Shown here: piece by piece, positions 29,946-63,791 of the stretch
How the letters are laid out: every line of letters begins with the position of its first letter
Numbering within the stretch: position 1 is the first letter of the stretch
DNA from: a virus
Lineage: Duplodnaviria > Heunggongvirae > Uroviricota > Caudoviricetes
IMG/VR virus record: IMGVR_UViG_2706795442_000001
Strand: one strand, 5' to 3'
Length of the DNA: 64,000 nucleotides
Notes under the pieces: generated by a model
The model's database searches: none
The model's input: the letters and a program-made list of their open reading frames with translations, nothing else
What the model was told of the DNA's origin: nothing
Translations under genes and position numbers: made by a program

Positions 29946-29974
29946 ATTATATAATAAAAAACACCCCTTGTCAA
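29946..29974 (-). promoter_or_regulatory. sigma70-type promoter TTGACA-17-TATAAT embedded in a terminator hairpin
   Basis: Minus strand reads TTGACA aggggtgttttttatta TATAAT. The -35 hexamer sits in the loop of hairpin 29961-29980, which overlaps the stop codon of gene 29971..31116. Confidence 0.55.
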
Positions 29975-31116
29975 GGGTGTTTTAAAAATTCTGTTGGGTT
30001 TTTATAACTTGGTTTTTGAACCTCTAATTTACCTTCTAAATTGTTATAGGTAAGAGTAGGAGTATTTTCAACGTCAAAAGGAATAATCTCTTTACTTTTA
30101 TTCAATATTTCATCTATCTCGCTCATTAAGTGAGAAAAATCCGCAAATGACGATTCAACTTTGTTTAAATTGTTTTTACGGAAGCTATAAGTTTTTCTAA
30201 AAGGCTTAATAATAAAATGATATACGTTGTTTTTTCTTACATAATCAAATTCTAAAGAATAATCATCGTGCACCTTTAAACTTTTCTCTTGTAAAATATA
30301 TCCATTAATTGGTATTTTTGTAATACTATCAAAAGCATCTTGAAAGTTTGATAGGTCATACAATAATTCATTAGTATATGATTCTATTTTTTCTAAAATA
30401 TTATTATTATTTACTACTTTATAATTAGGGATAGCAGAATAAAAAGACATTCTATCTAAAGATATTGCTCTTCCTTTTGAGAAATTGACATTTAATGATA
30501 AAAAATTGTTATAGTCATTTTCTGTTAATAGTAATATTTTTAACTCGTCTGATAAAATAAATAAACTAATAACAAACGGGATATTTGAATATTTAAAATG
30601 TGTAGATAGTAATTCATCATTATTAATATACTTACTGATTTTTTGTCTTGTGTCGTTAAAAGTATCAATATTTTTGTTTAAACTGTGAATACTATTTTGA
30701 ATATCTTTAATTATAAATGGTACTGTTTCTTTAAATTCTTTTTTGTATAGTTCATTTTTACTTAAGGTTTTCGTGTAAGAATAATGTAAATCGTACTTTT
30801 TATTACATGTAGTAATTGTAATCACACCGAAAAAACCTGTATAAGAAAAGTCTATATATGCTGATACTTTATATTCGTCAGATATATTATAAGTAAATTT
30901 AGATAGTTTTAGTTTTGTATTGTTTTCATCAAATGAATAATTAGGAAATATTTTTTCTAATTGCTTACCTATCTCTTTGTACATATACTCTCTTGATACT
31001 TCTTCTTTTTTATTAACAACATTATCAACTTTGTTTTTCATTATATCTGAATGATACACATACATTAACACTAAAGCAATAACAATTAGTAATAAACCAA
31101 TTAATAAAAATAGCAT
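29971..31116 (-). CDS. membrane-anchored hypothetical protein (381 aa)
   Basis: N-terminal TM segment. Confidence 0.45.
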   Translation of the reverse strand: MLFLLIGLLLIVIALVLMYVYHSDIMKNKVDNVVNKKEEVSREYMYKEIGKQLEKIFPNYSFDENNTKLKLSKFTYNISDEYKVSAYIDFSYTGFFGVITITTCNKKYDLHYSYTKTLSKNELYKKEFKETVPFIIKDIQNSIHSLNKNIDTFNDTRQKISKYINNDELLSTHFKYSNIPFVISLFILSDELKILLLTENDYNNFLSLNVNFSKGRAISLDRMSFYSAIPNYKVVNNNNILEKIESYTNELLYDLSNFQDAFDSITKIPINGYILQEKSLKVHDDYSLEFDYVRKNNVYHFIIKPFRKTYSFRKNNLNKVESSFADFSHLMSEIDEILNKSKEIIPFDVENTPTLTYNNLEGKLEVQKPSYKNPTEFLKHP

Positions 31117-31134
31117 TATAATTAATCTCTCCTT

Positions 31135-31488
31135 TTATTTTTTAAGAAACTCTTCGATTTTATTTTGTTTTTCTATACTTTCGTTTCGTTTTTTCTGTTT
31201 TTCATTTACATACTCTTCATAATAAACATCAATTAAATCAAATACATTATCAGACTTATAAATTCTTGCATTCGCTATATCTATACTAAAATCAGTGGTT
31301 AAGTCGATATATGTCGTCCATGTGTTATTTTTTACAAATACTAAAGTTGAAATTATATCATTTTCGATATAACGTATTTCATAACCATCTCTTAAACTAT
31401 ATATTTTATCGTTACTTTGAGTTTTCGACGACCCATGTGTTTTAATATATTGTGCTAAATCTAAAATATTAAAATCCATTCTTATCAA
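31135..31488 (-). CDS. hypothetical protein
   Basis: ORF present. Confidence 0.4.
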   Translation of the reverse strand: MIRMDFNILDLAQYIKTHGSSKTQSNDKIYSLRDGYEIRYIENDIISTLVFVKNNTWTTYIDLTTDFSIDIANARIYKSDNVFDLIDVYYEEYVNEKQKKRNESIEKQNKIEEFLKK

Positions 31489-31510
31489 TCTCCTTATTTA
31501 TTATATATAA

Positions 31511-31539
31511 ACTATAACATAGAAAAAGACCCCTGTCAA
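31511..31539 (-). promoter_or_regulatory. promoter TTGACA-17-TATAGT with the -35 hexamer in a hairpin loop
   Basis: Minus strand reads TTGACA ggggtctttttctatgt TATAGT. The hairpin GACCCCtgtcaatAGGGGTC lies at 31528-31547. Confidence 0.55.
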
Positions 31540-31592
31540 TAGGGGTCAAGTCAAAAGTTTAACATTTTTTTCATTTTCAATAATTAATTACA

Positions 31593-32387
31593 TTACTTTA
31601 AGTTAACAATAGGGTCTCCACCAATATTAATTGGTTGGTCGCCCTTCCATTTTTCAATAAGTTGTTTTTGTAATAACTCATCACTTAATGATTGTTCTAC
31701 GATTTCATTTGCTTTCTTAGTACCTTTTGCTTCAATTTCTTTACGTTCAGCTTCTTCCTTAGCAATTTGTTTGTCTACTTTTTTACGTTCTAATTCTTGA
31801 TTTGCTTTAACACGACTGTCAATTGCTTTTTGAGTGTTCTTGTCAGCTTTTGGAGAACTTAAAGCAATATCCTCAACAATAAATCCTTGACCTTTAAGAT
31901 TCTCTTCAAGTTTATCTAAAGTAGATTTTTTAATTTCACTTGTTTTAACACCGAAAGCATCAATTACTGAATACTTAGAAACAGATTGACGTACGTTATC
32001 TTGTACTCTTGAACGTAGATAACCTTTTTCTAGTTGTTCAATATCTGCACTACCGAAGCGATTAAACAATTCAACAGCTTTTGAACTATCAACTTTATAG
32101 TTTACATCAATATCTAAATTAAGATTTTTACCATCTGACGTTGATACATTCATGTCTTTGTAACTAATGGTTTGTGTTCTTGTCGGATATTCATTAACTC
32201 TATTCATTGGTGCTACTACATGCCAACCAGGACTTAAAGTATTGTCTTTGACCCCTTTAGGAGAGTATACAACACCTACTGTTCCTTGTGGAACTCTTTC
32301 AATACATAAGATTGCTATAACAAACAATACAATAACTCCCACCACTAATGCTGATAAGATACCACCTGCTTTAATTTTACTATTCAT
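31593..32387 (-). CDS. SPFH/band-7 (prohibitin/HflC-like) membrane protein
   Basis: N-terminal TM segment followed by the SPFH-type motif VPQGTVGVVYSPKG…PGWHVVAPMNRV…, then a coiled coil. Confidence 0.65.
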   Translation of the reverse strand: MNSKIKAGGILSALVVGVIVLFVIAILCIERVPQGTVGVVYSPKGVKDNTLSPGWHVVAPMNRVNEYPTRTQTISYKDMNVSTSDGKNLNLDIDVNYKVDSSKAVELFNRFGSADIEQLEKGYLRSRVQDNVRQSVSKYSVIDAFGVKTSEIKKSTLDKLEENLKGQGFIVEDIALSSPKADKNTQKAIDSRVKANQELERKKVDKQIAKEEAERKEIEAKGTKKANEIVEQSLSDELLQKQLIEKWKGDQPINIGGDPIVNLK

Positions 32388-32389
32388 AA

Positions 32390-32665
32390 TTAATCTTCTC
32401 CTCTTCTAATATCATCATGTAGTTTTTCTAATTCCTCAATATCATTGTCTAATTGTGCGACCTCTGATTCATAACCAGTGATTTTTTGTAGGGTATTTCT
32501 TTTATGCTGTTTAAAATTTATTTCACGTTCTATCCATGTTATTTCTCTGTCAGTTTCATTTTTTTCAATATGTTCTGTTACATAAGGAATTGTCTTTCTT
32601 ATGAAAATATATGAAACCATAAATATAATGCTAAACACTAACAAAAAAATTAATATCCATACCAT
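32390..32665 (-). CDS. small membrane-anchored protein
   Basis: N-terminal TM segment. Confidence 0.4.
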   Translation of the reverse strand: MVWILIFLLVFSIIFMVSYIFIRKTIPYVTEHIEKNETDREITWIEREINFKQHKRNTLQKITGYESEVAQLDNDIEELEKLHDDIRRGED

Positions 32666-32676
32666 TTATAGCACCT

Positions 32677-33369
32677 CTATGTTAATATTGTTAATGCTGA
32701 TTTAGACCAATTTTCTAAATCTAGTTTTTCAATCTCTTCTTTTGTTTTAAATGAACCTTCTAAAGTATCGGTTTCTTTAGATTCAACTGTCCAATTTTCT
32801 GGAATAACAATAACATTTAATACTCCTAAATGAACAGAATCAACCTCTGTTTTTTCGTTATATAATAAACCAATAATAGCTGATTCTTTAGTGATTTCAT
32901 AATGATTAGTAATTTCAATACCGTTGTCAGTTTTAATAGTAACTTCTTCTTCAAGTTCTCTTGAGTTATTTACTGCTAAAATATGTTCAAAATTCCAAGC
33001 GTGCTCTACCTCATTTTGATGTCCACCTATACCTATTGAAGATTTACCATGTAATCTAGATTCTCCACTGCCTTCAAGTCTAGTATAAGTAAAATATTTA
33101 TCTCCTTGCGCAATAATTGTGTAGGGAATTGGTTGAACGAAATCAAAATTCTCTTCTAAGTCTCCACGTCTACCAACAACCCCTGCAATTTCCCATAAAT
33201 TATTTAAAGTATTAACCATTGCATCATAGTCTTCTAAGTTAGTAGGAGCCAACACTTCTACATTTAACATGTCTTGAATTAAATTAATTTTTTCTAGTGC
33301 TGACTTATTAAGTGCTAAAATTTGTTCATCATTTTTATTCATAAATAATTTCTCCTTTTTAATATTCAA
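32677..33369 (-). CDS. hypothetical protein
   Basis: ORF present; contains a Gly-rich SIGIGGH motif. No confident family assignment. Confidence 0.4.
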   Translation of the reverse strand: MNIKKEKLFMNKNDEQILALNKSALEKINLIQDMLNVEVLAPTNLEDYDAMVNTLNNLWEIAGVVGRRGDLEENFDFVQPIPYTIIAQGDKYFTYTRLEGSGESRLHGKSSIGIGGHQNEVEHAWNFEHILAVNNSRELEEEVTIKTDNGIEITNHYEITKESAIIGLLYNEKTEVDSVHLGVLNVIVIPENWTVESKETDTLEGSFKTKEEIEKLDLENWSKSALTILT

Positions 33370-33628: not shown

Positions 33629-33659
33629 AATATTTTCTCCTTTCTAACAATCTAATAAT

Positions 33660-33688
33660 AGTATAACAGATGAAAAATCATCTGTCAA
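33660..33688 (-). promoter_or_regulatory. promoter TTGACA-17-TATACT with a hairpin in the spacer
   Basis: Minus strand reads TTGACA gatgatttttcatctgt TATACT. The hairpin lies at 33666-33685. Confidence 0.5.
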
Positions 33689-33691
33689 CTA

Positions 33692-36600
33692 TTATTTTTG
33701 TAATTTATAAATGTAATTTTTGTTGCATTCTTCTATTTTAATAACTGGATTCCTATATATATTATTACCTTTTACATTAAATGCTTCTCCGTTTTTATAT
33801 CCTAATAACACCAGTTTTGTGCCACGTTCCCACCAAGACTTCTCATTTTCAGTCTCTTCTTGGTATTTTGTATACATTCGTCTAGTAAGTTTTGCAGTAA
33901 TTACACCAGAATCTTTAGTTAATATATATACTAGTTTCTTTTGATTGACATATCCAACAACTACTCCAGTGATAGCGCTAATTTCATATTCTTTAAAACC
34001 ACGTGAATTAGTTTTCAAATAAGGTAAATTCTTTAGTTGCTTAAATTCGGATATGTCGTGTTTTTTTGCGACTTTATCAGTATCAATGACAAATTCATCA
34101 GAATTGAATAATATAGTATCAATTTCCCATTCTGGAATAGTGCCTTGACATTCTTTTACCCAATATTCTTGTCGTTTTTTCTTAGTAAATTCTTTAGCGT
34201 ATTGTGGTTTTTTAATTTCTTCTTTTAAAGGTTTTATTTCTTTATTGTAATATTTTTCAAATGATTTAATGTCTATTACTAACTCATCTTCTAAAGTGTA
34301 ATCAACATGTTTAGAATAGTTTTGTATAAATATTTTTTCTATTTCTTCGTTCATCGGTCCTTTATTTCTGCCTTTAATTCTACTTCTAAAATCATGCAGC
34401 GCCAATAGTTTATTGTATTTATCTGGTATTATATCCCTATAATAATCTAATTGAGACATTGTTACTTTTTCTTTTTGTGGTACTTCTAGCTTTACTAATT
34501 TAGCCATTATATGGCGTCTATCTAATTCTTCTAATGAATCCATAGCACCAGATTTAATTAATGAAATAGTTTTTTTAGTGCTTGTTAGTTTAGTATCAAC
34601 CATTTTTTCATAATAATCTTTTAATGATTTAAATGGTCTATTTTCAATAATAGCATCTAATGTGTTAGTATCTAAACCTAGTATTGGTTTTAATCCATAT
34701 AAAACTTTTCCGTTCTGTGCAGTAAATTTAAGTTGAGATTTATTAATGTCTGGTAAAATAATATCATCACTCATACTGTTTACTGCTATAGAAACTTCTG
34801 CATAGTCAGTGCCTTTAGTTAAATTACCTTCAAGACCAGAGTTAATATTGAGACAGGCTGTTTTCCAATAACCTAAACCATATTTATACGCAATATTCAT
34901 TTCCACCATTAAAACTAGTGTATATGCTACCACGTGCGGTAATGAAAATGCGTAATTAAATTGTAACGCAAACTGTTCTTCAAGTATATATCTAGCAAAC
35001 TCTTCTCGTTGATTGTTATTTTTCATAACTTGCATAAATTCTTTAGACGCATTCTCGATTTTTTTCTCATCTTTTTTTCCTACTGATTTTCTAAACTTAT
35101 TTGCAAAAGTTAATCCACCATTGGCTATTTTAGGGTCAATAATAATATTCATAAGTATTTCTTGTGTGTCACAAATACCAGTTCTTGGCAGCAAGTGTTT
35201 TTCCATAAGCTCTTGTTCATGTTTAGTCAGTCCATATTTATCCATGTCTTGATACCATTCATTGATGTTTTGTTTATATCTTACAAACTTGTCAATTGGT
35301 TGTTCTCCTTCTGTTTGTAAACGAATAATTGTGTTAGTAATAGCCACTTCGTCAAAAGTGTTAGGTTTAATTTTGCGCATCGCATTTCTTGCAACTAGAG
35401 ACGACATTTGGAAAGCATCAAATATATCTCCTTTTGAAAGCATATCAAACATTCCATTAGAAGTCAAGTCTAATACGTCTGGGTGGAAATATTTATTATA
35501 TGTTTCTCTTAATGAGCCTTGCCATTTAATTTTACCATCTTCTAAAAGTAAATCCATTGCTTCTCTAATTCTACCTAGAGCTGAAATTGAAAGAAAATCC
35601 TCTTTTAATTCTCCACAATATTCTCCGTCTTCTGCGTTAAATTGTGTAACTGTTAATCCTTTTGTTGTTTTCATCATTGCATTTTCTTTTAGAAAACTAT
35701 GTGGATAAAAAATAACAGAACTTGCATGTTGAGAACGACCACTAATCAATCCCTCTATAGATAACATAACATCTTTTAATCCGTCGTGTTTCTCCACACG
35801 TTCAATAAATTCTTTAACAGGTTTTCTTTCTTTTTTTTCATTACCAAAGAAACAGTCTGATACAGACCATAAAGAAGCTCCTTCTGATGGTATTAAGTTT
35901 GCAATATTATGTTGTTCAGCAACGTCTAATCCATATCCACGTGTAGCAGTTATAACTGTAGACTTAGGTCCTTCTGTAGTGAAAGTACAACTATTAAGGA
36001 TTTTGTCATTACCATATCTCTTTCTTGCCAATTCAACAATTTGTTCACGTTTAGAAGCCTCAGCATCGATGTCGATGTCGGGTAATGATTGTCTTTCTTT
36101 ACTTAAGAAACGATAGTATGGTAAGTCATAATCTAGTGGATTAAATTGAACAATATCTAGTAGATAGTTCGTATAATAACAAGCAGCTGAACCACGTGCA
36201 GGTCCTACTAAACTAACTTCCCACATCATGTCAATAATATCTTGTGTTAGTACAAAATAACTTGATAATGGTTGTCCTAATCCTTCTGATATTTCCCATA
36301 TTTGCTCTAATTCAATCTCTATTCTATCTAAATGTTCCTTATTAAACTCTTGATTATGTGATAGCATACCTTCTCCAATAAGGTGTAGATAGTATCTATC
36401 CATATCTCTTTCAGAGTTTTTAAATTTATTAATATAAATATAGTCATCAAGATAATTTTCGAACAAGTTTTTATCATTATATCTTGGTATATCAATATTT
36501 GGGACTTGAGTTTTTTGTTTAAAATTAATAGGTTCTAATCTTTTCATTAAATCATGTGTATTTTGAATTAATTCTTCTAGTAATTCTTTATTAAAATATT

Positions 36601-38659
36601 CTAGCAATTCGGCTTTGTCCATGATATATGTCGTATTATAAAAACTGTCTACTTCACGCTCTCCGTTGCTTGCTTGTAAGTAAGTTTTATGTGCAAAAGC
36701 CTGTTTTTTATTTAAATAATGAGCATCTGTAGTTATAATTGGAGTTAAATCATACACTTTACAAAGTTGTAGTAGCATATCATTTACAATTTGTTGTTCT
36801 TGTTTCACATCAGCATTTGATTTATCATGTTTAATTGCTGGTTGTAGCTCAAGATAAAAGTTCTCTTTGCCTACTAAGTTAATAAAGAACATAATAAAGT
36901 TGTGTATTTTTTTCTTATCTTCTATTGAACCTGTTTTATCATATTCTAAGATATATTGTGATAACGGGCTACCGAGACAATTGTGTACTGTTGCGCCTTC
37001 AATGATAAATGAGTGATTTTTATTTACTTTCATACAATGAACTTTTTCTACTTTTGTAGATTTAGATATGTTTTTTATTCTATTTTTCATATACGAAACA
37101 CCATCTACTATTACAGGAACATCATTGAAAGACATATCTTTGTCAGTTATTATAAAGTCATTATCATTATCACAAAAGTCCTTTAATTTTGTAGCTTTAG
37201 CTCCACCTAAAGAAAGATAGTAAGATTTTTGATGATGAACACCATTTTTATCTATTCTCTCTTCTGAAGAACTAATTATAGGATTTATTTTAAATTTAAA
37301 GAATACTTCTTTAATATCTTGAATTAAATCATATGAGATAGATGAATATACAAATTCTTTTCTAGGTTTTTTTCTAAAATACCCATCACTATGAGCCAAA
37401 CCTTTTAACAAGTATTGTAATTTATTCTTAGGGAGCTGTTTTATAATAGTTGGAATATGTTTGTTTAATGCTCCTTTTTTATTATTAAATAACCAATCCC
37501 AAAAATCTCTATTATCTTTTCCAAACACTGTAATATCACTTCTAGTATTTTCTTTTCTATGTCGTACAGTAGCATTAAGTCCTTTAGATTTAAAGTATTT
37601 TAAAATAAATTCCGTTTTTTCTTTATCGTTATAATTTAAAGTAAAACCAAAATCATATGGGGAATGTCCAAAATGTCCATCTCCAATAAATAATCCAAGC
37701 ACATACAGGAAATCTTTATCTACTTTATATTGTGTGTTGCCATGTTTTAATACTGTCATATCTTGAGTTGTATAATTAATAGGTGTTAATAAATAGTCGT
37801 TTTCTTTTAAATACTTTGCTTCTACCCAATTAGGATATTCATATGAAGCTCGTTGTTTCGCTCTTTGTAGGATTCCTGCTTTTTTATTTCTGTCCATATC
37901 TTTAGAATAATTCTTTTCACTTTTTATTTCTTCATATTTACCATTATGTTTTTTATTATTTCCAACCCAATATTTATTAGGTAAAACGAGAAATTTATGA
38001 TTATCTGTACTTTCAATAGGTAAGACACTGTTTGAAACGTCTAAAGATATAAAGTTACCATTATATATTCTTGATGTCGGATTTAATACTTTTTGAAAAC
38101 TACCATCTTCTGTCATTACAATATCTCCAGATTTAATATCTTCTATATTTTTATTGCCACTAATTGTTTTTACTTTTTGTCCTTTAGTGAAGCATGCCGA
38201 GCTGAAGATTACATCATTCTCATATCCTTTAACCAATTCTTCAATATCTTCAAAGTAGGTAGGTGTTCTTTCCATCCCCCTGTAGAAGAAGCTGTTCTGC
38301 CACTCTCTAGTTGTTAATTTCTTCAAGAACTCATAACCATGTTGATTTTTAGCTAGCACTAGAAAATGATAAAATTGCGTTTTTTCATTGTTTTCTACAG
38401 CTTCATTTATCGTATCTTTTTCTACTAAATAAAACTCATCTCCATATCCTAAGACAAAGTCTTTAAACTTGTCTTTATTATCTTCAATATATCTGTGCGC
38501 TCTTACGTGATTACTAATTGTCGCATGGTCTGTGATAGCTATACCTGGTAGACCTAATTCTAAAGCGTAATCTAAAAGGTCTTCTGGTCTATTAATTGCA
38601 TCACGTAAACGAAAGTTACTCGCATCTGTGTGATTATGAATAAGAAAAGGTTGATTCAT
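33692..38659 (-). CDS. DNA polymerase III alpha-type (DnaE-like) replicative polymerase, containing an intein
   Basis: The N-terminal PHP domain reads HNHTDASNF…GLPGIAITDHATISNHV. The protein is 1655 aa, about 1250 aa after the intein is removed. Confidence 0.85.
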   Translation of the reverse strand: MNQPFLIHNHTDASNFRLRDAINRPEDLLDYALELGLPGIAITDHATISNHVRAHRYIEDNKDKFKDFVLGYGDEFYLVEKDTINEAVENNEKTQFYHFLVLAKNQHGYEFLKKLTTREWQNSFFYRGMERTPTYFEDIEELVKGYENDVIFSSACFTKGQKVKTISGNKNIEDIKSGDIVMTEDGSFQKVLNPTSRIYNGNFISLDVSNSVLPIESTDNHKFLVLPNKYWVGNNKKHNGKYEEIKSEKNYSKDMDRNKKAGILQRAKQRASYEYPNWVEAKYLKENDYLLTPINYTTQDMTVLKHGNTQYKVDKDFLYVLGLFIGDGHFGHSPYDFGFTLNYNDKEKTEFILKYFKSKGLNATVRHRKENTRSDITVFGKDNRDFWDWLFNNKKGALNKHIPTIIKQLPKNKLQYLLKGLAHSDGYFRKKPRKEFVYSSISYDLIQDIKEVFFKFKINPIISSSEERIDKNGVHHQKSYYLSLGGAKATKLKDFCDNDNDFIITDKDMSFNDVPVIVDGVSYMKNRIKNISKSTKVEKVHCMKVNKNHSFIIEGATVHNCLGSPLSQYILEYDKTGSIEDKKKIHNFIMFFINLVGKENFYLELQPAIKHDKSNADVKQEQQIVNDMLLQLCKVYDLTPIITTDAHYLNKKQAFAHKTYLQASNGEREVDSFYNTTYIMDKAELLEYFNKELLEELIQNTHDLMKRLEPINFKQKTQVPNIDIPRYNDKNLFENYLDDYIYINKFKNSERDMDRYYLHLIGEGMLSHNQEFNKEHLDRIEIELEQIWEISEGLGQPLSSYFVLTQDIIDMMWEVSLVGPARGSAACYYTNYLLDIVQFNPLDYDLPYYRFLSKERQSLPDIDIDAEASKREQIVELARKRYGNDKILNSCTFTTEGPKSTVITATRGYGLDVAEQHNIANLIPSEGASLWSVSDCFFGNEKKERKPVKEFIERVEKHDGLKDVMLSIEGLISGRSQHASSVIFYPHSFLKENAMMKTTKGLTVTQFNAEDGEYCGELKEDFLSISALGRIREAMDLLLEDGKIKWQGSLRETYNKYFHPDVLDLTSNGMFDMLSKGDIFDAFQMSSLVARNAMRKIKPNTFDEVAITNTIIRLQTEGEQPIDKFVRYKQNINEWYQDMDKYGLTKHEQELMEKHLLPRTGICDTQEILMNIIIDPKIANGGLTFANKFRKSVGKKDEKKIENASKEFMQVMKNNNQREEFARYILEEQFALQFNYAFSLPHVVAYTLVLMVEMNIAYKYGLGYWKTACLNINSGLEGNLTKGTDYAEVSIAVNSMSDDIILPDINKSQLKFTAQNGKVLYGLKPILGLDTNTLDAIIENRPFKSLKDYYEKMVDTKLTSTKKTISLIKSGAMDSLEELDRRHIMAKLVKLEVPQKEKVTMSQLDYYRDIIPDKYNKLLALHDFRSRIKGRNKGPMNEEIEKIFIQNYSKHVDYTLEDELVIDIKSFEKYYNKEIKPLKEEIKKPQYAKEFTKKKRQEYWVKECQGTIPEWEIDTILFNSDEFVIDTDKVAKKHDISEFKQLKNLPYLKTNSRGFKEYEISAITGVVVGYVNQKKLVYILTKDSGVITAKLTRRMYTKYQEETENEKSWWERGTKLVLLGYKNGEAFNVKGNNIYRNPVIKIEECNKNYIYKLQK
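36980..38194 (-). mobile_element. intein (405 aa) with a LAGLIDADG homing endonuclease domain, inserted in the PHP domain of the polymerase
   Basis: Begins CFTKGQKVKTISG…GDIVMTEDG and ends …EGATVHN, followed by extein C(LGSPLS). LAGLIDADG blocks LYVLGLFIGDGHF and LLKGLAHSDGYF are present. Confidence 0.8.
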
Positions 38660-38660: not shown

Positions 38661-39038
38661 TTATTGTTCCTCCATTTCTTTTAAAACTTCTATAAACTCT
38701 TTATTAATCTTATCAGAATCAACAATCTGTTTCATTTTTTCTTTTATGAAACCATTTATTTCATCCTTATTATTAATTTCACTGTCTACAATTGGTTCAT
38801 AAATATTTGGTCTTGAAGTTATATCTATAATATCCTCTTGTGAAACTATATGTTTTACTCCTTTTACTTTATCTGTTACATGCCACATCTTAAACATTAA
38901 ATAATGATTTACTTTATTATCCCTCATTCCGTATGATAATTGAATTTCAAATAATTCGTTTTCATATTCTTTTGTAAATTCTATCTGTTTTATTAAACTC
39001 ATAATATTTCCTCCTACTAAAAAACTTGTTAAGTACAT
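38661..39038 (-). CDS. hypothetical protein
   Basis: ORF present. Confidence 0.4.
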   Translation of the reverse strand: MYLTSFLVGGNIMSLIKQIEFTKEYENELFEIQLSYGMRDNKVNHYLMFKMWHVTDKVKGVKHIVSQEDIIDITSRPNIYEPIVDSEINNKDEINGFIKEKMKQIVDSDKINKEFIEVLKEMEEQ

Positions 39039-39067
39039 TATAGCATACTCAACAAGTTCTGTAAAGT

Positions 39068-39652: not shown

Positions 39653-39714
39653 ACAACATTCCTCCTATTTATAAAATTAGGGCAAGTGAAAACCTGCCCT
39701 TTAAAAGTTAAGTT

Positions 39715-40537: not shown

Positions 40538-40566
40538 ATTATATCGTATGACTAATGATTTGTCAA
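40538..40566 (-). promoter_or_regulatory. promoter TTGACA-17-TATAAT
   Basis: Minus strand reads TTGACA aatcattagtcatacga TATAAT. It lies immediately downstream of terminator hairpin 40586-40601. Confidence 0.55.
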
Positions 40567-40615
40567 GCGTTTTATAAAAATCAAAGGTGGAATTTTCCAC
40601 CAATGATTGATATAA

Positions 40616-41234: not shown

Positions 41235-41264
41235 AATATATCATATCAGTATACGTATTGTCAA
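41235..41264 (-). promoter_or_regulatory. promoter TTGACA-18-TATATT
   Basis: Minus strand reads TTGACA atacgtatactgatatga TATATT. Confidence 0.45.
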
Positions 41265-42857: not shown

Positions 42858-42956
42858 TTATATTCTTTTAATCTTTCTACTCTTTTTATATTTGTCATCT
42901 TGTGTCTTAGTGCTTGTATATATTTGTTTGACTTCTTCCTTTGTTAGTTTATTCAT
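42858..42956 (-). CDS. small basic ORF (32 aa)
   Basis: RBS AGGGAGG lies before ATG 42956. Its stop overlaps the methyltransferase RBS. Confidence 0.3.
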   Translation of the reverse strand: MNKLTKEEVKQIYTSTKTQDDKYKKSRKIKRI

Positions 42957-42978
42957 AAAAAGCCTCCCTGTATGATAT

Positions 42979-43007
42979 ATTGTATAACAGGGAGATATAA
43001 ATGTCAA
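42979..43007 (-). promoter_or_regulatory. promoter TTGACA-17-TACAAT
   Basis: Minus strand reads TTGACA tttatatctccctgtta TACAAT. Confidence 0.5.
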
Positions 43008-43027: not shown

Positions 43028-43783
43028 TTATTTCCAATTAAAATTGTCTGCAAACTGTGCTATTTTACTTCTAAAGTTGGTTGTAAAGTGGTGGTATGCT
43101 GCACCTTGATAGTCTTCTGATTTAAAATAATTTACATAAGGCTCGAATCCCGATTTACTATTTTGTTTTAAATCAATTTGTCTATAGTTACCTTCAACAA
43201 CACATTTAGAATTAGAATGTAATCTTGTCAACACTTTCTTTAATTCAGAACGTTTAAAATTCTGCGCTTCATTTATAACTACTGTAACGTTTTTTAAATT
43301 TCCACCACGTAAAAATAAATGAGATATTTGAGACACCCAGCAATCTAACAATTTATTTTCTTCATGGTTTTCGTCCATTAACAACATTTCCGTTATGACT
43401 TGCTCTGGAACCATATTTAATTCTGTGATAGCATCGTGCAATCCCATAAAATATGCCATTTCTTTTTCTGTTTGATTTCCTGGTCTGCTACCTAAATCTT
43501 CTGAAACTGGTGCAATAATAAACACTAATTTCTTACCTTTGTTTAACCAATCTGCATAAGCACATGCAACACTGCACATGGTCTTCCCTGTACCTGCTGG
43601 ACTTTCGTTAAACAAAATCTCTATATCATCATTAAAAAAGTCTTCACAAAATTGTAATTGTTCTTGTGTAGCCTTATTTAAAAAATCATCAAATACTGTA
43701 TGTTCTAGCATGTTGTATTGTACTAACGGAAAATTTTGTAATTTATATTTTAACTCTTTATCCATTTTTGCCAAAGTTATCAT
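43028..43783 (-). CDS. PhoH-like ATPase
   Basis: Walker A SPAGTGKT is present. The PhoH motif INEAQNF…TRLHSNSKCVVEGN is present. Confidence 0.75.
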   Translation of the reverse strand: MITLAKMDKELKYKLQNFPLVQYNMLEHTVFDDFLNKATQEQLQFCEDFFNDDIEILFNESPAGTGKTMCSVACAYADWLNKGKKLVFIIAPVSEDLGSRPGNQTEKEMAYFMGLHDAITELNMVPEQVITEMLLMDENHEENKLLDCWVSQISHLFLRGGNLKNVTVVINEAQNFKRSELKKVLTRLHSNSKCVVEGNYRQIDLKQNSKSGFEPYVNYFKSEDYQGAAYHHFTTNFRSKIAQFADNFNWK

Positions 43784-44570: not shown

Positions 44571-44596
44571 TGTAATAGCTCCTTTTTAAAATTTTA

Positions 44597-44620
44597 AAGG
44601 GGAAAATATCCCCCTTATTT
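44597..44620 (-). terminator. intrinsic terminator
   Basis: Stem AAGGGGaaaatatCCCCCTT with flanking T/A tracts. Confidence 0.5.
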
Positions 44621-45776: not shown

Positions 45777-45806
45777 ATAATATCATATATTATTCAGCGT
45801 TGTCAA
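45777..45806 (-). promoter_or_regulatory. promoter TTGACA-18-TATTAT
   Basis: Minus strand reads TTGACA acgctgaataatatatga TATTAT. Confidence 0.45.
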
Positions 45807-48467: not shown

Positions 48468-49514
48468 CTATCTTATCAATGATATTCTATCTCTAAACAA
48501 TTTTAACCATGTATCTTTTCCCTTATCTGTAGGACTATCTTTTAAATCAAGCAAATTATTTTTGTCCCATACTACACTGACTGAAAAATATGGTTTTAAT
48601 TTATTGGCTATTGTTTTTTCAACTTTTTCTGCATAATATTTTTCTAACGTGTCTCCTATATTTTCAAATTCTTTATCGACAGCGATAATAACTTCTTCAA
48701 TTGGTAGATTCTTTATTAAATTTAATTGTCTATCGCTGAAAGCACTACCAGACATACATACACCTATACCGTGTCCATTATAAAAACTATCTAATTGTAA
48801 TACAGATTTCTCAGATTCAAATAAAACAAGTTTCTTTGTAGACATTATATTGCCCATATTTTCATACAAACCATATAAAGTAGCTCCTGTGGGATGGTTA
48901 AGAAATGCATTTTTTTGTTTTACAGGCGTATATTTCAACCCTTTATCTACAAGAAACGGGTCAAGGTTTCTTGCTCTTACACCAACAATATATCCGTCTT
49001 CATTTCTATGTGGTATTACTATTTGCTTGTTTTCTATAGACATTTTAATATCAAACTTTTTCATTGTGCTAGGCATAATTCCTTCTTTTACCCAAGATAT
49101 ATGATATTTGTCATCATATCTATTTAAAACACTGTCAGATAAAGTCTTTAATGGTTCGTAATGGATTACTTTATTAAATTTATTAAAGAAAGACAAATCT
49201 ATTATATCATCATAGTTATACTCTGTCAATTCATTTTCATATCCAAAATAGTCTTTAATATATTTAAATGCTTCTGAAAATTCTACGTTTTTTATTTTTT
49301 GAATTAGTTCAAATATATCCATAGAACCACAGTTAGTATAACAATGTATCATTTTAGTATCGTCGTAATAATACATTTTATGTGAATGACCACTATGGCA
49401 AATCGTACGTGCTATTATTTGACCATTTTGTTCATAAGGCTCAGCACCTAACTGTGTTAGGAGGGTTATTATATCATTAGGACCAAGCTGTTCTTTTAGG
49501 CTTTGAGCATCCAA
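48468..49514 (-). CDS. DNA primase (DnaG-type zinc-binding domain plus TOPRIM)
   Basis: Zinc ribbon CHSGHSHKM…CYTNCG is present. The TOPRIM motif reads LVLFESEKSVLQL. Confidence 0.75.
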   Translation of the reverse strand: MDAQSLKEQLGPNDIITLLTQLGAEPYEQNGQIIARTICHSGHSHKMYYYDDTKMIHCYTNCGSMDIFELIQKIKNVEFSEAFKYIKDYFGYENELTEYNYDDIIDLSFFNKFNKVIHYEPLKTLSDSVLNRYDDKYHISWVKEGIMPSTMKKFDIKMSIENKQIVIPHRNEDGYIVGVRARNLDPFLVDKGLKYTPVKQKNAFLNHPTGATLYGLYENMGNIMSTKKLVLFESEKSVLQLDSFYNGHGIGVCMSGSAFSDRQLNLIKNLPIEEVIIAVDKEFENIGDTLEKYYAEKVEKTIANKLKPYFSVSVVWDKNNLLDLKDSPTDKGKDTWLKLFRDRISLIR

Positions 49515-52080: not shown

Positions 52081-52110
52081 ATTATATCATAAGACTATGT
52101 CTTTTGTCAA
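52081..52110 (-). promoter_or_regulatory. promoter TTGACA-18-TATAAT
   Basis: Minus strand reads TTGACA aaagacatagtcttatga TATAAT. Terminator hairpin 52117-52142 lies just upstream. Confidence 0.55.
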
Positions 52111-52139
52111 TAAAAATAAGACTAGAATTAAATCTAGTC

Positions 52140-52352
52140 TTACAATCTAAAACTACTTAACAGTAATTCTATAAGAAAAACAACTCCTACACAAGCCCAA
52201 AAACTAACATATTTACCTGTAAACGCACCAATTATTCCCCATAATACCCATGCAGGAATAAAAATCGCTAACCCAATAATTAATAAAGCGACAATAACAA
52301 TAAGTAAAATAGTTCCAATTGCTTTTAATAATTCCATTCTAAATATCTCCAT
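52140..52352 (-). CDS. small membrane protein
   Basis: Two TM segments. Confidence 0.4.
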   Translation of the reverse strand: MEIFRMELLKAIGTILLIVIVALLIIGLAIFIPAWVLWGIIGAFTGKYVSFWACVGVVFLIELLLSSFRL

Positions 52353-53792: not shown

Positions 53793-53821
53793 ATTATATA
53801 TGTATGCCCCCTTAATGTCAA
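53793..53821 (-). promoter_or_regulatory. promoter TTGACA-17-TATAAT overlapping a terminator hairpin
   Basis: Minus strand reads TTGACA ttaagggggcatacata TATAAT. The hairpin CCCCCTT…AAGGGGG lies at 53807-53826. Confidence 0.6.
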
Positions 53822-53834
53822 GGGGGTTTAGATA

Positions 53835-57289: not shown

Positions 57290-57318
57290 ATTATATCATA
57301 AAAGAACAGTTTTGTCAA
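57290..57318 (-). promoter_or_regulatory. promoter TTGACA-17-TATAAT overlapping a terminator hairpin
   Basis: Minus strand reads TTGACA aaactgttcttttatga TATAAT. The hairpin lies at 57303-57325. Confidence 0.6.
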
Positions 57319-57338
57319 CTGTTCTTGTAAAATAATTA

Positions 57339-58981: not shown

Positions 58982-59120
58982 AATATCTCTCCTTATTTAT
59001 TTCTCCTTCACATAATCTAAAGGAATATCAATGTTGTCTTCTGATTCTATTATAACAAAAAATCTTCCTAATTATACCACATAAAACCGTTATTTTAGCT
59101 AGTATTTTCATTTTTAAAAC

Positions 59121-59145
59121 CCCGTCATGACGGGCTTCGTGACAC
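59121..59145 (-). terminator. palindrome/terminator CCCGTCATGACGGG followed by CTTCGTGAC and an A/T tract
   Basis: Perfect 14-nt palindrome downstream of gene 59421..59603. Confidence 0.4.
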
Positions 59146-59420
59146 CTCTCTTTTTTTATCTTTTAATTTTTTTGTTTCTTTTTGTCATGACAAAAATCTC
59201 CTTATTTTATTATAATCAATATTATACCCCATAATCACTTGTGCTTTTCTAATTTTTTAACATCAATTAATAACTCATGTTCTTTACTTATTAAATCATT
59301 TATTGTATTATATTTTTCTTTATTATCTTTAACCAATTTTAAAATAATACTAGTTGTTATTAAAATATAAACACAAAAAACTATAGATAATCCAACAATT
59401 CCAATAATCATTTTTATTAA

Positions 59421-60294: not shown

Positions 60295-60321
60295 AACAAT
60301 CTCTCCTATAAAATTATTCTT

Positions 60322-60744
60322 TTAAACCATTTCTCCATTCTTCCAAATTAATTGTGTGTTCATTGTATCATCTAAATAGTAAGCTTCTTTTATTTTTATC
60401 GGGGTTTCATTCACAAGAAATGAAATACTTGTGTTAGTGTAATAATTTATCGCTGTAGTAGAACTATATGGATTAAAATATTTCACAATCATATTTTCTA
60501 ATATTGTGTCTTCATCGATTTCTATTTCTTTCTGTATAATTAAATCTTTCCCATTATTAGAAGTAATATTATCTTTAGTTTCAAAGTCAGCTATTTTTAA
60601 GTAGGTGTTGCTGGTTGATGTTGATGTGTCAGTTAAATAAGTAATCTGTTCGATAAAAAAGGTTTTTTGACCTTCTTGTTTATCAATCAATCTTTTAAGA
60701 TATTCTCCTTGACTAATAACTTCTTCTATTTTAATTTTTGTCAT
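60322..60744 (-). CDS. hypothetical protein (paralog of 58574..58981)
   Basis: Shared C-terminus …TQLIWKNGEMV. Confidence 0.4.
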   Translation of the reverse strand: MTKIKIEEVISQGEYLKRLIDKQEGQKTFFIEQITYLTDTSTSTSNTYLKIADFETKDNITSNNGKDLIIQKEIEIDEDTILENMIVKYFNPYSSTTAINYYTNTSISFLVNETPIKIKEAYYLDDTMNTQLIWKNGEMV

Positions 60745-60961
60745 TATTCAATTCCTCCTTATATGAATCCATTAATTTTTTTGAATGGTCACTAGCCTCT
60801 TCTATTAAAAACTTATCTTCATCTGTCATACTATCTAACAACTCTTGTGTTGTCTTTTCTTGATAGTTATTTACATTGATTGTACTGTCATACTTTTGTA
60901 AAATCTCCATAACTTTTACTTGTTCATTTAGAATTTCTGAAATTAGTTCTTTTCTACTCAT
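60731..60961 (-). CDS. hypothetical protein
   Basis: ORF present. Confidence 0.4.
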   Translation of the reverse strand: MSRKELISEILNEQVKVMEILQKYDSTINVNNYQEKTTQELLDSMTDEDKFLIEEASDHSKKLMDSYKEELNNDKN

Positions 60962-61076
60962 TCTTTTTTTCCTCCTTATTTCTATAATTCAATACTAGCA
61001 TATGTATAAACCAAAGTCAACAATATATTAATAAAGACTAGAGAAAAAACTCTAGCCTTAACATATTTTTATCCTA

Positions 61077-62120
61077 TTAAGCAATCTCTTTTAATTTATC
61101 TACTAATACTGATAAAATTTCTGCTTGACTTTCGTCTAAGTCTTTTACTTTTCTGCCATTTCCTAAGACATCTTCAATAACTTTATTACGCTCTTCTGTT
61201 TTACCGTCTTTTTGTAGTTTTTTTCCTAGTTCAGCTGTTTCTTTCATTAAAGCGTCAAAGTCATATTCTACACCTTTAGACTGTTCTCGTTTGCCTTCTG
61301 TAATATTATCTTTTCCTTCTGATTCAATAGCTTTCTTCACTACTTTTTGATAAGAGTCTGATGATAATTCAGATGTTTCTGGCATAAATCTAAAAGTAGC
61401 TCCTGCTAAGTGTGTTAGTGAATCTCTGTAAAATATTTTACGATGTTCTACCCCATTGTTATCTACAGTTAAGTCTAAAAATAGAATGTTATCTGCTATA
61501 CGATTAATCATATTAAAGAACTTTGTTTTTACATCTGGAACTGTTTTTTGATATTCTACATATTCTTTGCCATCTTTTTCACGAGTAGTAGTAGCACCTT
61601 CTACATTTTTTTCTTCTTCTGTTGCATCTTTAACCAATACTTTTTTTGTTTCTGTTTTAGCATGTGAAATAAATACAGGTGTATATCCAGACTTTTCAAT
61701 CAAAGAAAGACCTTTTTCTAACTCTTTATTATATTCACTGAAACCTTTACCCCATGCGGCGTCTGACAAATCGTCAATTTGTAAGTTAGATAAAACATAA
61801 GTTTCACAATAAGTTTCGAAACGAGAGACAGTATCTAATGCGATTGCATCGTACTTTTCTTGTAATTTAGGGTTTTTAAGTAATTTCATGATACGTAAAA
61901 ACTCCGCCCAAGAATCAATATTAATAACATGAGCATTAGGAATTGCGTCGTGACGACGTTCAGTTGCTAAAAATAATACTTTCTCTCCGTATAAATCATT
62001 AATAAATGTTGTTTTACCAGTTTTAGGAAACCCATAAACAAATGTAGAGTATGTTTTTGCGTCAGTTGGTACTTTATTTCCCTCGATATTCAATAAATCA
62101 TCTACTGTAATTTTTGCCAT
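61077..62120 (-). CDS. AAA_24-type ATPase (Sak4-like recombination protein)
   Basis: Walker A YGFPKTGKTT and Walker B IALDTV are present. It lies adjacent to the SSB-like gene. Confidence 0.5.
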   Translation of the reverse strand: MAKITVDDLLNIEGNKVPTDAKTYSTFVYGFPKTGKTTFINDLYGEKVLFLATERRHDAIPNAHVINIDSWAEFLRIMKLLKNPKLQEKYDAIALDTVSRFETYCETYVLSNLQIDDLSDAAWGKGFSEYNKELEKGLSLIEKSGYTPVFISHAKTETKKVLVKDATEEEKNVEGATTTREKDGKEYVEYQKTVPDVKTKFFNMINRIADNILFLDLTVDNNGVEHRKIFYRDSLTHLAGATFRFMPETSELSSDSYQKVVKKAIESEGKDNITEGKREQSKGVEYDFDALMKETAELGKKLQKDGKTEERNKVIEDVLGNGRKVKDLDESQAEILSVLVDKLKEIA

Positions 62121-62173
62121 AATTAATTTCTCCTTTGATTTTATAATGTTTTATAATTTTTTTATATTGCTAA

Positions 62174-62437
62174 TTAATTAAATGGTTTTAATTCTTCAAC
62201 AGAGTTATCTAGTGTATCTAAGACTTCTTCTGATAATGCAATTAAAGTTTCTGACGTATCTAATGATGAACCTTTTTCATATACTGTGTCCATAACAGAA
62301 AAAAGATATTTTCTTATTTCTCCTACTGTACCATCTGTGTTGTTAATTGCATTCTGTAATAAATGACTTCCTAATATTGTTAATTGCTCTTTAATTTGTT
62401 CAACACTCATTAAATCATCTAATTTAATCTCTTTCAT
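62174..62437 (-). CDS. hypothetical protein
   Basis: ORF present. Confidence 0.4.
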   Translation of the reverse strand: MKEIKLDDLMSVEQIKEQLTILGSHLLQNAINNTDGTVGEIRKYLFSVMDTVYEKGSSLDTSETLIALSEEVLDTLDNSVEELKPFN

Positions 62438-62459
62438 GAATAATTTCTCCTTTATTATA

Positions 62460-62684
62460 TTATATTAGTTTCACTTTATCAAGTCTAAATTCTAATTCCT
62501 TTTCGACCTCAGTAAAGAAAGCTACCATTAAATACTCGTTCTTATTGTCAGCTTCTTGTTTGTCGAGTTTTAAAATGTTTTTAATTGTTCCATAATTTTC
62601 ATGTTTAAAAATTAAATTATCTAAATACTCTTCGACCTTTTCCTCTAATAATTCTCCATAATGTGTATAATAATCAAAACCCAT
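62460..62684 (-). CDS. hypothetical protein
   Basis: ORF present. Confidence 0.4.
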   Translation of the reverse strand: MGFDYYTHYGELLEEKVEEYLDNLIFKHENYGTIKNILKLDKQEADNKNEYLMVAFFTEVEKELEFRLDKVKLI

Positions 62685-62728
62685 TATTATTCCTCCTTAA
62701 ATAATAACAAGGGGACAATCCCCTTGCA

Positions 62729-63727
62729 TTAAAAGTCTAAATCATCTAAGTCACTATCTGTAGTTGTGTCTTCTTGTTTTTTCTTATCATCTTTACTTCC
62801 CTCTCCGAAAGCATTATCACTTGGAGTTGAGTTTGGAACATAACCGTCTTCTAAATCACTGATAGCTTTTTGACGCCATTGTTTAGCTTCTTCAATTTGT
62901 TCTTCATCATATTCTCTACCATCAGCATAAGGTGTAGTACCCCCTACAACTTCAAAGTTATTAACAAAATTACGTTTAACTTCTGCTAAATCTTCTGTGT
63001 CTCCAAAACCGTCAATCTCTTCTTGTAATTCTTCTGGTTCAGCATCTACTGCGTAATTATTAATTTTTAATGTAAATTTACCAGTGTCGCCCTCGTCGTA
63101 TAACTCTTCAAATTTTTCAGCAATATCAGATGGAACAATAGCTTCAATAGGAATGATTGGTCTAGCATTGTCACGTAATTGTTTGTAGAAATCAACATTA
63201 AAGAATTCTAATTTTTTATCGTCTGTTGGTAATCCGTCGTCATCATTAATATCTTTGATACCAGTAACGATACCTTCGACTACTACTTTAGCTTTAGGTC
63301 CTTTGGCTTTCTTAACCTGTTCTTCTGTTAATCTATTAAAGAATTTTGCACTAACATTATTGTGACGTCTAGTATTTCCGTCTTGACCAATATATTCGTT
63401 TAATTCTACTGAACCGTCAACTCTAACTAAATCTGCTTCTTTCTTATTACCTGTATCTTCAATTGATTTATATTCATCTAATACTGTTTTAAATCCTTTA
63501 TATAAACCGTTCTCGTTACCATCCTGTTTAAATCTATTAGAATAAACACGTGCTCTAATATCATGAGAACATACTTCTCCATTAACTGATTCTTCTACAA
63601 GAATAGTTACAGAACCTTTAATATTTTCTTTACCGTCTTTTGTTTCTCCTAATTCAAGGTCTACTGATTTAACACGACCAATAACCTCTGCCTCATTTTT
63701 TAATGCTTTTAATGTTGTATCTGCCAT
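62729..63727 (-). CDS. single-stranded DNA-binding protein-like (acidic C-terminal tip DLDF); start revised to the internal ATG
   Basis: The acidic tail …TTDSDLDDLDF is typical of SSB C-termini. RBS AAGGAG lies 8 nt before ATG 63727. The track's ATG 63763 lies inside the -10 box of the upstream promoter. Confidence 0.5.
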   Translation of the reverse strand: MADTTLKALKNEAEVIGRVKSVDLELGETKDGKENIKGSVTILVEESVNGEVCSHDIRARVYSNRFKQDGNENGLYKGFKTVLDEYKSIEDTGNKKEADLVRVDGSVELNEYIGQDGNTRRHNNVSAKFFNRLTEEQVKKAKGPKAKVVVEGIVTGIKDINDDDGLPTDDKKLEFFNVDFYKQLRDNARPIIPIEAIVPSDIAEKFEELYDEGDTGKFTLKINNYAVDAEPEELQEEIDGFGDTEDLAEVKRNFVNNFEVVGGTTPYADGREYDEEQIEEAKQWRQKAISDLEDGYVPNSTPSDNAFGEGSKDDKKKQEDTTTDSDLDDLDF

Positions 63728-63761
63728 AAATAATTTCTCCTTCTTTTTTAATCTGTTATTC

Positions 63762-63791
63762 ATTATAACATAACACCCCTAAAGGTGTCAA
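63762..63791 (-). promoter_or_regulatory. promoter TTGACA-18-TATAAT with a hairpin in the spacer
   Basis: Minus strand reads TTGACA cctttaggggtgttatgt TATAAT. The inverted repeat ACACC…GGTGT is in the spacer. Confidence 0.5.

Follow-up and report, generated by a model that had tools for sequence, protein, structure and literature searches.

Introduction

Coupling of the start and stop signals of adjacent genes, up to their overlap, is a principle described for bacteria: an August 2026 preprint, as far as its accessible text goes, claims that promoter-terminator coupling is widespread there (10.64898/2026.08.19.745784), and polymerase recycling and genome streamlining are the benefits proposed for such signals (10.64898/2026.02.12.705533; PMC6978380; 10.64898/2026.08.19.745784). 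The August preprint concerns bacteria and, judged by term counts, does not mention phages. Here, we analyse the same principle in a 64,000-nt stretch of phage DNA (hereafter the window), which corresponds with 100% identity to bases 19740-83739 of Staphylococcus phage 6ec (KJ804259.1, 93,794 bp, genus Sextaecvirus), and in particular in the gene junctions of its minus-strand array, where predicted promoters and predicted terminator hairpins abut or occupy the same bases.

According to the available passages of the report on Kayvirus vB_SauM-515A1, this phage resembles 6ec in being a lytic Staphylococcus phage with dozens of early promoters of sigma-70 consensus that are read by the host polymerase, with terminators made of a GC-stem and poly-T between short units, and with a phage sigma factor for the late genes (PMC7698491). 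At least one of its promoters is 'located immediately after' a terminator; promoters lying within terminator hairpins are not described in these passages (PMC7698491). In contrast to Kayvirus, 6ec is a siphovirus of another genus, and the Kayvirus late -10 element TGTTATATTA is not enriched in it. In the record of the sister phage SEP9 (vB_SepS_SEP9, KF929199.1), a promoter (66873-66897) is placed inside a terminator (66873-66904) at the orthologue of 6ec 53793-53826, and a second promoter and a terminator meet end-to-end (63627-63656 and 63655-63684) at the orthologue of 6ec 52081-52143. The record stops at annotation; it does not describe the architecture as fused, offers no evidence from covariation and does not recognise layouts B and C (see below). 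The 6ec record annotates terminators, but not sigma-70 promoters. Finally, Bao and Forster (10.64898/2026.02.12.705533) reported hairpin-less class II T7 terminators that act as TGn promoters, whereas 6ec combines class I hairpin terminators with full -35/-10 promoters, in a phage and at high density.

The principle is thus already known, and existing annotation contains the phage case implicitly. The present analysis adds three registers of overlap, including one with the -10 box in the hairpin loop, covariation of the stems, the self-complementarity of the promoter consensus, a strict placement null and recurrence in an outgroup. Read from the sequence, the dual-coded junctions of 6ec probably end upstream transcripts and restart transcription along a one-directional early/middle array of ~43 kb.

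Candidate host promoters of the minus-strand array

Composition and open reading frames place the late genes of the 6ec window on the plus strand up to ~23.5 kb, from where an unbroken minus-strand gene array extends to the end of the window and past it to ~86,900 of the 6ec record. The whole array spans ~43 kb with ~75 co-directional genes for replication and nucleotide metabolism, and we infer that these genes belong to the early/middle class. A phage sigma-factor gene (PHAGE6E_127) is located in the same leftward unit just outside the window, and relatives annotate a sigma-factor gene as well, which fits the use of host-sigma promoters for early and middle genes.

An initial annotation of the window had listed twelve near-consensus minus-strand promoters of the sigma70 type, eleven in the array and one at 731-758, and had proposed that they provide gene blocks with promoters for the host polymerase. 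All twelve hexamer pairs were found at the positions given. Exact matches to TTGACA-N16-18-TATAAT number 10 as compared to 0.19 expected, a count reached by none of 100 shuffles, and allowing up to one mismatch with a 17-nt spacer yields 21 matches versus 2.42 expected. The loose class of promoters (at least 9 of 12 matching bases) is not enriched (144 versus 134 expected, and 136 versus 124 expected), and hence only the near-consensus class stands out. All twelve listed sites, as well as a promoter at 39037-39065 (TTTACA, 11/12) that was absent from the list, are positioned upstream of, and pointed at, a minus-strand gene. A Shine-Dalgarno sequence follows each of the twelve at a distance of ~25-35 nt, which bears out the earlier statement that all of them point into minus-strand genes. 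The dinucleotide TG directly precedes the -10 box in nine of 13 intergenic sites and corresponds to the -16 extension that Gram-positive sigma-A promoters typically carry.

In SEP9, BE22, PT1-4, RQ1, PMBT8, DH5 and PG-2021_67, the hexamers are kept while spacers and flanks have diverged, as seen at 33688, 39065, 45806, 52110, 53821 and 63791 (promoters are designated by their higher coordinate), where the identity of neighbouring proteins drops to ~38-66%. Considering the excess over chance, the orientation and the conserved hexamers, the listed sites are very probably host sigma-A promoters of the minus-strand gene blocks, as had been proposed, their activity being predicted. Kayvirus promoters of the same consensus coincide with up-steps in RNA-seq coverage, according to the accessible part of that study (PMC7698491).

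A second identity of the TGTTATACT sites as late promoters of the Kayvirus type (long -10 TGTTATATTA without a -35; TGTTATA[ACT]T) was considered and dropped, as the motif TGTTATAHT is not enriched in 6ec (8 found versus 9.5 expected).

Three exact matches that are not gene-proximal went unmentioned in the initial annotation:

49201-49229, minus strand: TTGACA-17-TATAAT within the primase gene.
18611-18639, minus strand: TTGACA-17-TATAAT in antisense orientation at the junction of gene 48 and the holin gene.
19945-19973, plus strand: exact match located within a group I intron.

Given 0.19 matches expected by chance, the first may be an internal and the second an antisense promoter. In the more distant phages DH5 and PG-2021_67, nearly all strong promoters read TTGACA-17/18-TATACT instead of ending in TATAAT, a lineage-specific preference in the -10 box.

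Predicted stop and start signals share bases in three layouts

All 22 gaps of at least 30 nt were surveyed and searched for hairpins, and hairpin stability was assessed by holding the hexamers fixed while shuffling the remaining bases. At six of the twelve listed sites (29974, 31539, 33688, 53821, 57318 and 63791), the hairpin beats at least 98.5% of the shuffles, with dG values of -10 to -14 kcal/mol. Three layouts can be distinguished. In layout A (29974, 31539, 53821 and 57318), the -35 box is located at the apex of a hairpin that ends in the spacer. In layout B (33688 and 63791), the hairpin reaches from 'TGACA' of the -35 box to 'TGTTA' at -16/-10. In layout C (39065 and 43007), which had been overlooked, the -10 box lies in the loop and the stem closes past the predicted start site, followed by a T-run. 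Altogether, the predicted signals share bases at eight junctions, and at three others (40566, 52110 and the weak promoter 61020) they abut, with the terminator ending 0-15 nt upstream of the -35 box. The individual sites, all on the minus strand, are:

29946-29983, fused, layout A: promoter TTGACA-17-TATAAT (29946-29974); hairpin AAAACACCCTTGACAAGGGGTGTTTT (29958-29983) with the -35 at its apex and the T-run as spacer; dG -14.4, 0 of 200 shuffles as stable; ARNold terminator in the 6ec record; stop codon TGA of the upstream open reading frame (29971-29973) falls in the -35 hexamer; near-copy in a Sepunavirus genome.
31511-31547, fused, layout A: TG-extended promoter TTGACA-17-TATAGT (31511-31539); hairpin GACCCCTATTGACAGGGGTC (31528-31547), then TTTTTCTA; dG -12.9; ARNold terminator in the 6ec and SEP9 records; identical hairpin in Sepunavirus PG-2021_23.
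33660-33688, fused, layout B: promoter TTGACA-17-TATACT, 3 nt past the DNA polymerase stop codon; hairpin TGACAGATGATTTTTCATCTGTTA (33664-33687), in which 'TGACA' of the -35 pairs with 'TGTTA' at -16/-10; dG -13.4; weak T-tract.
39021-39065, fused, layout C: promoter TTTACA-17-TATAAT (39037-39065), not in the initial annotation; 13-bp stem AACTTGTTGAGTA/TACTTAACAAGTT (39023-39058) with the -10 in the loop, then TTTTTT; predicted start in the 3' arm; promoter annotated at the orthologous spot in the SEP9 record.
40538-40601, abutting: terminator GGTGGAAAATTCCACC + TTTGATTTTT (40586-40601), 9 nt, then promoter TTGACA-17-TATAAT (40538-40566); ARNold terminator in the record.
41235-41264, promoter without hairpin: TTGACA-18-TATATT, TG-extended; relatives keep the -35, while the -10 becomes TAAGAT.
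42964-43007, fused, layout C: promoter TTGACA-17-TACAAT (42979-43007); stem CTCCCTGT/ACAGGGAG (42964-42994) encloses the -10; its 3' arm carries the ribosome-binding site GGGAGG, then GCTTTTT-ATG.
45777-45806, promoter without hairpin: TTGACA-18-TATTAT, TG-extended; hexamers conserved in relatives, spacer and flanks diverged.
52081-52143, abutting: terminator GTAAGACTAGATTTAATTCTAGTCTTAT (52116-52143), its T-run leading directly into promoter TTGACA-18-TATAAT (52081-52110); terminator and promoter annotated end-to-end in SEP9, same layout in PT1-4 and RQ1.
53793-53826, fused, layout A: promoter TTGACA-17-TATAAT (53793-53821); hairpin CCCCCTTGACATTAAGGGGG (53807-53826), dG -13.6, then CATACATA without a T-tract; overlapping promoter and terminator annotated in SEP9; ATTCCCCTTGACAAAGGGGAAT at the same position in PT1-4.
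57290-57326, fused, layout A: TG-extended promoter TTGACA-17-TATAAT (57290-57318); hairpin AAGAACAGTTGACAAAACTGTTCTT (57302-57326), then TTATGATA; dG -13.4; promoter annotated at the orthologue in the SEP9 record.
60992-61059, abutting, weak promoter: terminator AAGGCTAGAGTTTTTTCTCTAGTCTT (61034-61059); TG-extended promoter TTGACT-17-TAGTAT, 9/12 (60992-61020); terminator and an 11/12 promoter at the orthologue in PT1-4.
63762-63791, fused, layout B: promoter TTGACA-18-TATAAT; hairpin TGACACCTTTAGGGGTGTTA (63771-63790) in the -35 and spacer; dG -10.2; promoter conserved in PT1-4, DH5 and PG-2021_67 without this hairpin.
731-758, promoter without hairpin: TTGACA-16-TATAAT; predicted to drive PHAGE6E_34 (477-698), a lone minus-strand gene within the plus-strand tail module.
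39679-39700, stand-alone terminator-like hairpin: AGGGCAGGTTTTCACTTGCCCT + AATTTTAT, no promoter; assigned to the same punctuation system.
44595-44617, 62707-62727 and 59108-59145: similar stand-alone hairpins without a promoter.

The view that the promoters are embedded in or abut hairpins thus stands for eight to nine of the twelve; it does not extend to 758, 41264 and 45806, where neither the hexamer-fixed shuffles nor the hairpin search revealed a hairpin. The further statement that the -35 box or the spacer is usually part of the hairpin applies to about half of them (six of twelve truly embedded), and at 43007 the hairpin covers the -10 box instead. The four hairpins quoted in the initial annotation were correct to within a base. 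Use of the T-tract as spacer is clear at 29974, 31539 and 57318, but the tract is absent at 53821 and weak at 33688.

Hairpin stabilities range from -8 to -17 kcal/mol, and with respect to dG and T-tails the embedded hairpins resemble the stand-alone terminators of the region. Most are followed by a T-rich tail with 5-7 T in 8 nt: the T-tracts are good at 29974, 31539, 39065, 43007, 52143 and 40601, moderate at 57318, weak-to-moderate at 63791, poor at 33688 and absent at 53821. Terminator-like sites number 10 versus 3.5 expected in each half of the region. ARNold predictions in the 6ec record cover 29974, 31539, 40601 and 62727, and those in the SEP9 record cover the orthologues of 31539, 52143 and 53821. 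Judged by these features, terminator function is likely for most of the hairpins and doubtful for some.

The largest gap of the array (58982-59234, 253 nt, minus strand) harbours a strong hairpin (CCCGTCATGACGGGG + TTTT) that is annotated as terminator, and promoter matches in it do not exceed 9/12. A stem core (G)ACTAGA...TCTAGT(C) recurs at 52116-52143 and 61034-61059; it is kept in PT1-4, RQ1 and PMBT8 although the adjacent protein is ~44% identical, an unusually strong conservation for a terminator stem.

Compensatory changes in the stems

To follow the stems through evolution, 6ec was compared with SEP9, S-CoN_Ph15, S-CoN_Ph9, CF1, BE22, PMBT8, PT1-4, DH5, PG-2021_67 and RQ1, a set of relatives that covers the genus and extends past it. 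The layout-C stem at 39065 reads AACTTGTTGAGTA/TACTTAACAAGTT in 6ec, AACCTGGTTAGTA/TACTTATCAGGTT in PT1-4 and RQ1, and GTCTTGCTATATA/TATGTAGTAAGAC in PMBT8. In the alignment of these four sequences (A1), the 13-bp stem is 96% paired, and in six of the 13 pairs both bases have changed. In 500 shuffles, neither the pairing nor the covariation score of the alignment was attained, and slid partners are only 23-46% paired. The layout-B stem (alignment A2, nine sequences, 81 cells) is 100% paired, and all four variable pairs covary; its five invariant outer pairs are formed by bases of the promoter consensus. That is, TTGACA...TGTTATAxT is partly self-complementary, and therefore only three to four extra pairs in the spacer are needed for a 9-bp stem. 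Both samples are small (four and nine sequences), and A2 mixes orthologous with non-orthologous sites. Scans of IMG/VR with two flanking proteins returned only two near-identical contigs and thus no added diversity. Within these samples, the G-U pairs and compensatory changes point to selection on RNA structure.

These data also bear on whether the palindromes over the -35 box and spacer could be operators, at which a dimeric regulator of phage or host would shut off the early promoters. Inverted repeats centred on promoter elements occupy a classic repressor position, a 'transcriptional repressor' gene is annotated in this region in some relatives, and PT1-4, RQ1 and PG-2021_67 have the same layout-B sequence TTGACAGAGATTAAGTTCTCTGTTATACT next to a polymerase that shares only ~46-59% identity with its 6ec counterpart. 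However, no stem motif is common to the sites, the stems differing in sequence at every one of them (CACCC, GACCCC, CCCCC, AGAACAG, ACAGATGA), which argues for structure rather than a protein-binding motif. Moreover, orthologous stems have kept their pairing through compensatory substitutions, G-U wobble included, which is sensible only for RNA, T-runs follow most of the palindromes, and the annotated repressor gene is absent from 6ec at that locus. The operator hypothesis was rejected on the lack of a shared motif and the RNA-type covariation, and we regard it as extremely improbable. Regulation at the DNA level, for instance by cruciforms, was also considered; with 6-11 bp and loops of 4-8 nt, the stems are short for extrusion.

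Overlap of the signals and genome compaction

At first sight, the overlap appears far from random. In 6ec, compact strong hairpins overlap seven of 20 strong minus-strand promoters as compared to a genome-wide background of 2.2% (p ~1e-7), and pooling six lineages gives 26 overlaps with a compact hairpin among 137 strong promoters, versus a background of 2.7% (p ~6e-15).

Several observations count against the proposal that the junctions are dual-coded to stop and restart transcription. The genome-wide background is mostly coding sequence, which flatters the p-values. When each promoter was placed randomly in its own gap, leaving 20 nt for a leader, 7.5 overlaps were expected and seven of 12 were observed (P=0.86), i.e. 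there is no excess of overlap within the gaps. A preference of promoters for hairpins was dropped on this count. As the gaps are too short to accommodate both signals side by side, their co-location requires nothing beyond compaction. Fusion is also optional, with three of the twelve listed promoters lacking a hairpin and four to five terminators lacking a promoter. The hairpin at 53807-53826 lacks a T-tract and the tails in layout B (UACUAUUAUU) are poor; termination may therefore be weak or absent at some hairpins. Loops of 10-15 nt, as in layout C, are larger than usual in intrinsic terminators. Finally, among the papers naming the genus Sextaecvirus, judged by title and abstract, there is no transcription study that would provide 5'- or 3'-end data. 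Ordinary genome compaction is at present the simplest reading of the overlap.

The irregular tails and loops raise the further question of whether the hairpins terminate transcription at all. They could mainly stabilize 3' ends or serve as RNase processing signals, with transcription reading through and the promoters adding initiation. Poor or absent T-tracts (53807-53826, 33664-33687 and 63771-63790) and loop sizes atypical of terminators in layout C would agree with this scenario, and covariation shows that the structure matters, not for which function. However, most hairpins do carry tails with 5-7 T in 8 nt, ARNold classes several of them as terminators, and in Kayvirus, elements made of a GC-stem and poly-T coincide with down-steps in RNA-seq coverage, according to the passages available (PMC7698491). 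We consider an exclusive role as stabilizers or processing signals improbable. The initial annotation had taken the hairpin to be the terminator of the upstream gene; ARNold predictions and compensatory changes speak for this assignment, whereas the missing T-tract at 53821 and the weak ones at 33688 and 63791 speak against it there, termination being a predicted activity throughout.

Proposed mechanism and possible polymerase hand-off

In the mechanism that we favour, the dual-coded junctions would split the array into short transcription units. A GC-rich RNA hairpin, usually with a U-rich stretch behind it, would end or 3'-protect the upstream transcript, and a near-consensus sigma-A promoter (TTGACA, 17-18 nt, TATAAT, often with TG at -16) would restart transcription by the host RNA polymerase. 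Since the gaps at the terminator/promoter junctions measure only 56-113 nt, stop and start signals share the same bases. The three registers may limit the resulting conflict in different ways. In register A, the -35 box would sit in the hairpin loop and the U-tract would serve as AT-rich spacer. In register B, 'TGACA' of the -35 box would pair with 'TGTTA' of the -16/-10 region, for which three to four extra pairs in the spacer suffice. In register C, the -10 box would be in the loop and the hairpin would close past the start site. In all three, the promoter's own transcript would lack the 5' arm and therefore ignore the terminator, whereas RNA arriving from upstream would fold the hairpin, so that only incoming transcripts stop. 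This escape follows from the geometry, assuming that transcription starts 6-8 nt past the -10 box. At some layout-C sites, the 3' arm is also the ribosome-binding site, which would be masked in read-through RNA and free in promoter-initiated RNA. Promoter activity, termination, timing and masking of the ribosome-binding site are all predictions of this model.

Spacing at the junctions can be extremely tight; at 33688 and 39065, just 2-3 nt lie between the stop codon of the upstream gene and the -35 box. Stop codons in or near terminator stems are compatible with uncoupled transcription-translation as described for Bacillus.

If the scheme applies, opposing stop and start signals can be encoded in the same ~30-45 bases without conflict, with hexamers placed in loops or pairing with each other. 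For staphylococcal phages that are candidates for therapy, it provides a testable map of transcription units with several gene starts corrected. The predicted signals could also serve synthetic biology as compact natural terminator-promoter parts for low-GC Gram-positive hosts.

The two signals might in addition be coupled functionally. That is, a polymerase terminating inside the next promoter could stay on the DNA, rebind sigma and re-initiate on the spot, or read-through could occlude the promoter such that terminator efficiency tunes its output. In the first form, upstream transcription would feed the downstream promoter while resetting the 5' end of the transcript. The second form takes up a suggestion of the initial annotation, namely that promoter strength could vary with read-through and with the folding of the upstream RNA, for which the present results provide no support. 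Single-molecule work has shown that E. coli RNA polymerase commonly stays on the DNA after intrinsic termination and re-initiates at nearby promoters, and its authors expect a dependence on the distance between terminator and promoter (PMC6978380); a 2026 preprint proposes this very benefit for combined terminator-promoters (10.64898/2026.02.12.705533). In 6ec, this distance is zero or negative at eight junctions, at which a recycling effect should accordingly be maximal, and hairpin positions put the predicted release point between the spacer and ~15 nt past the start site. However, nothing in the sequence requires coupling, as random placement within the gaps accounts for the overlap and many of the junctions show no fusion. 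Moreover, recycling has so far been reported neither in vivo nor for a Gram-positive polymerase (PMC6978380), and it would demand that the core enzyme bind sigma anew precisely at the promoter. Functional coupling thus appears possible but unlikely.

We rate as decidedly unlikely the more specific idea that the fused junctions are hand-off stations for polymerase, with layout C also limiting translation of the downstream gene to RNA started at the promoter, as the ribosome-binding site would be masked in read-through transcripts. If true, hand-off would turn a single flux of polymerase into a series of short, separately capped-off mRNAs, and these phages would represent a natural setting in which polymerase recycling, so far seen in single-molecule work only, takes place in vivo, with the 6ec junctions as a dense natural test bed for the recycling model.

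Recurrence in an outgroup

In the Sepunavirus myovirus PG-2021_23, an unrelated outgroup, hairpins overlap 10 strong promoters, and most of them hold the -35 box in the loop. Two of these modules are homologous to those at 29974 and 31539 in 6ec and reside in a mosaic shared by both phage groups (~25.4-32.4 kb of the window, 72-96% identity). By sequence comparison, this design is therefore a general one in lytic staphylococcal phages, and gene cassettes can carry it along. The compact terminator-promoter fusion noted in the initial annotation is indeed present in 6ec but not peculiar to it.

More precisely, the segments at ~25400-32430 of the window (minus strand) are 72-96% identical to Sepunavirus myoviruses (PG-2021_23, phiIPLA-C1C and the BE04 group). 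This mosaic suggests that cassettes have been exchanged between two genera, one of siphoviruses and one of myoviruses, fused terminator-promoter modules included.

Start codons and neighbouring genes

Three annotated gene starts look wrong because they are placed inside promoter elements; two of them belong to coding sequences (CDS) whose starts are overlapped by the promoters at 42979-43007 and 63762-63791:

PHAGE6E_125: annotated start 63763 is an ATG within TATAAT; the true start is likely the ATG at 63727.
PHAGE6E_90: annotated start is the TTG at 43037; the true start is likely the ATG at 42956, which is preceded by GGGAGG.
PHAGE6E_36 (HNH): annotated start 2039 is the TTG of a TTGACA; GGAGG-ATG follows ~50 nt downstream.

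The DnaE-like DNA polymerase upstream of the layout-B junction (33692-38659, minus strand) is a single open reading frame of 1655 aa in 6ec. In relatives, it is annotated as two to five pieces with HNH endonucleases or joins (SEP9 'j2', S-CoN phages), which suggests introns, inteins or assembly frameshifts there. BE22, CF1 and Ph9 possess additional genes between the polymerase and the conserved layout-B promoter.

A scan of the window for tRNAs returned none, and an Rfam scan matched no RNA family to any of the junctions; elsewhere in the window, it detected a group I intron and one match to a small RNA (sRNA) family. Both are located in the endolysin region, the features of which, on the plus strand, are:

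19716-19829, 20339-20638 and 21809-22438: CDS fragments of the split endolysin gene.
19791-20033: complete group I intron (Rfam, 109 bits).
20717-21265: free-standing HNH endonuclease gene between the endolysin pieces.
21994-22248: full-length match to the Staphylococcus sRNA S808 (Rfam, 212 bits versus a gathering score of 76).

The S808 match is contained wholly within the C-terminal endolysin CDS, and the Rfam S808 family itself may be derived from phage or prophage lysin sequence.

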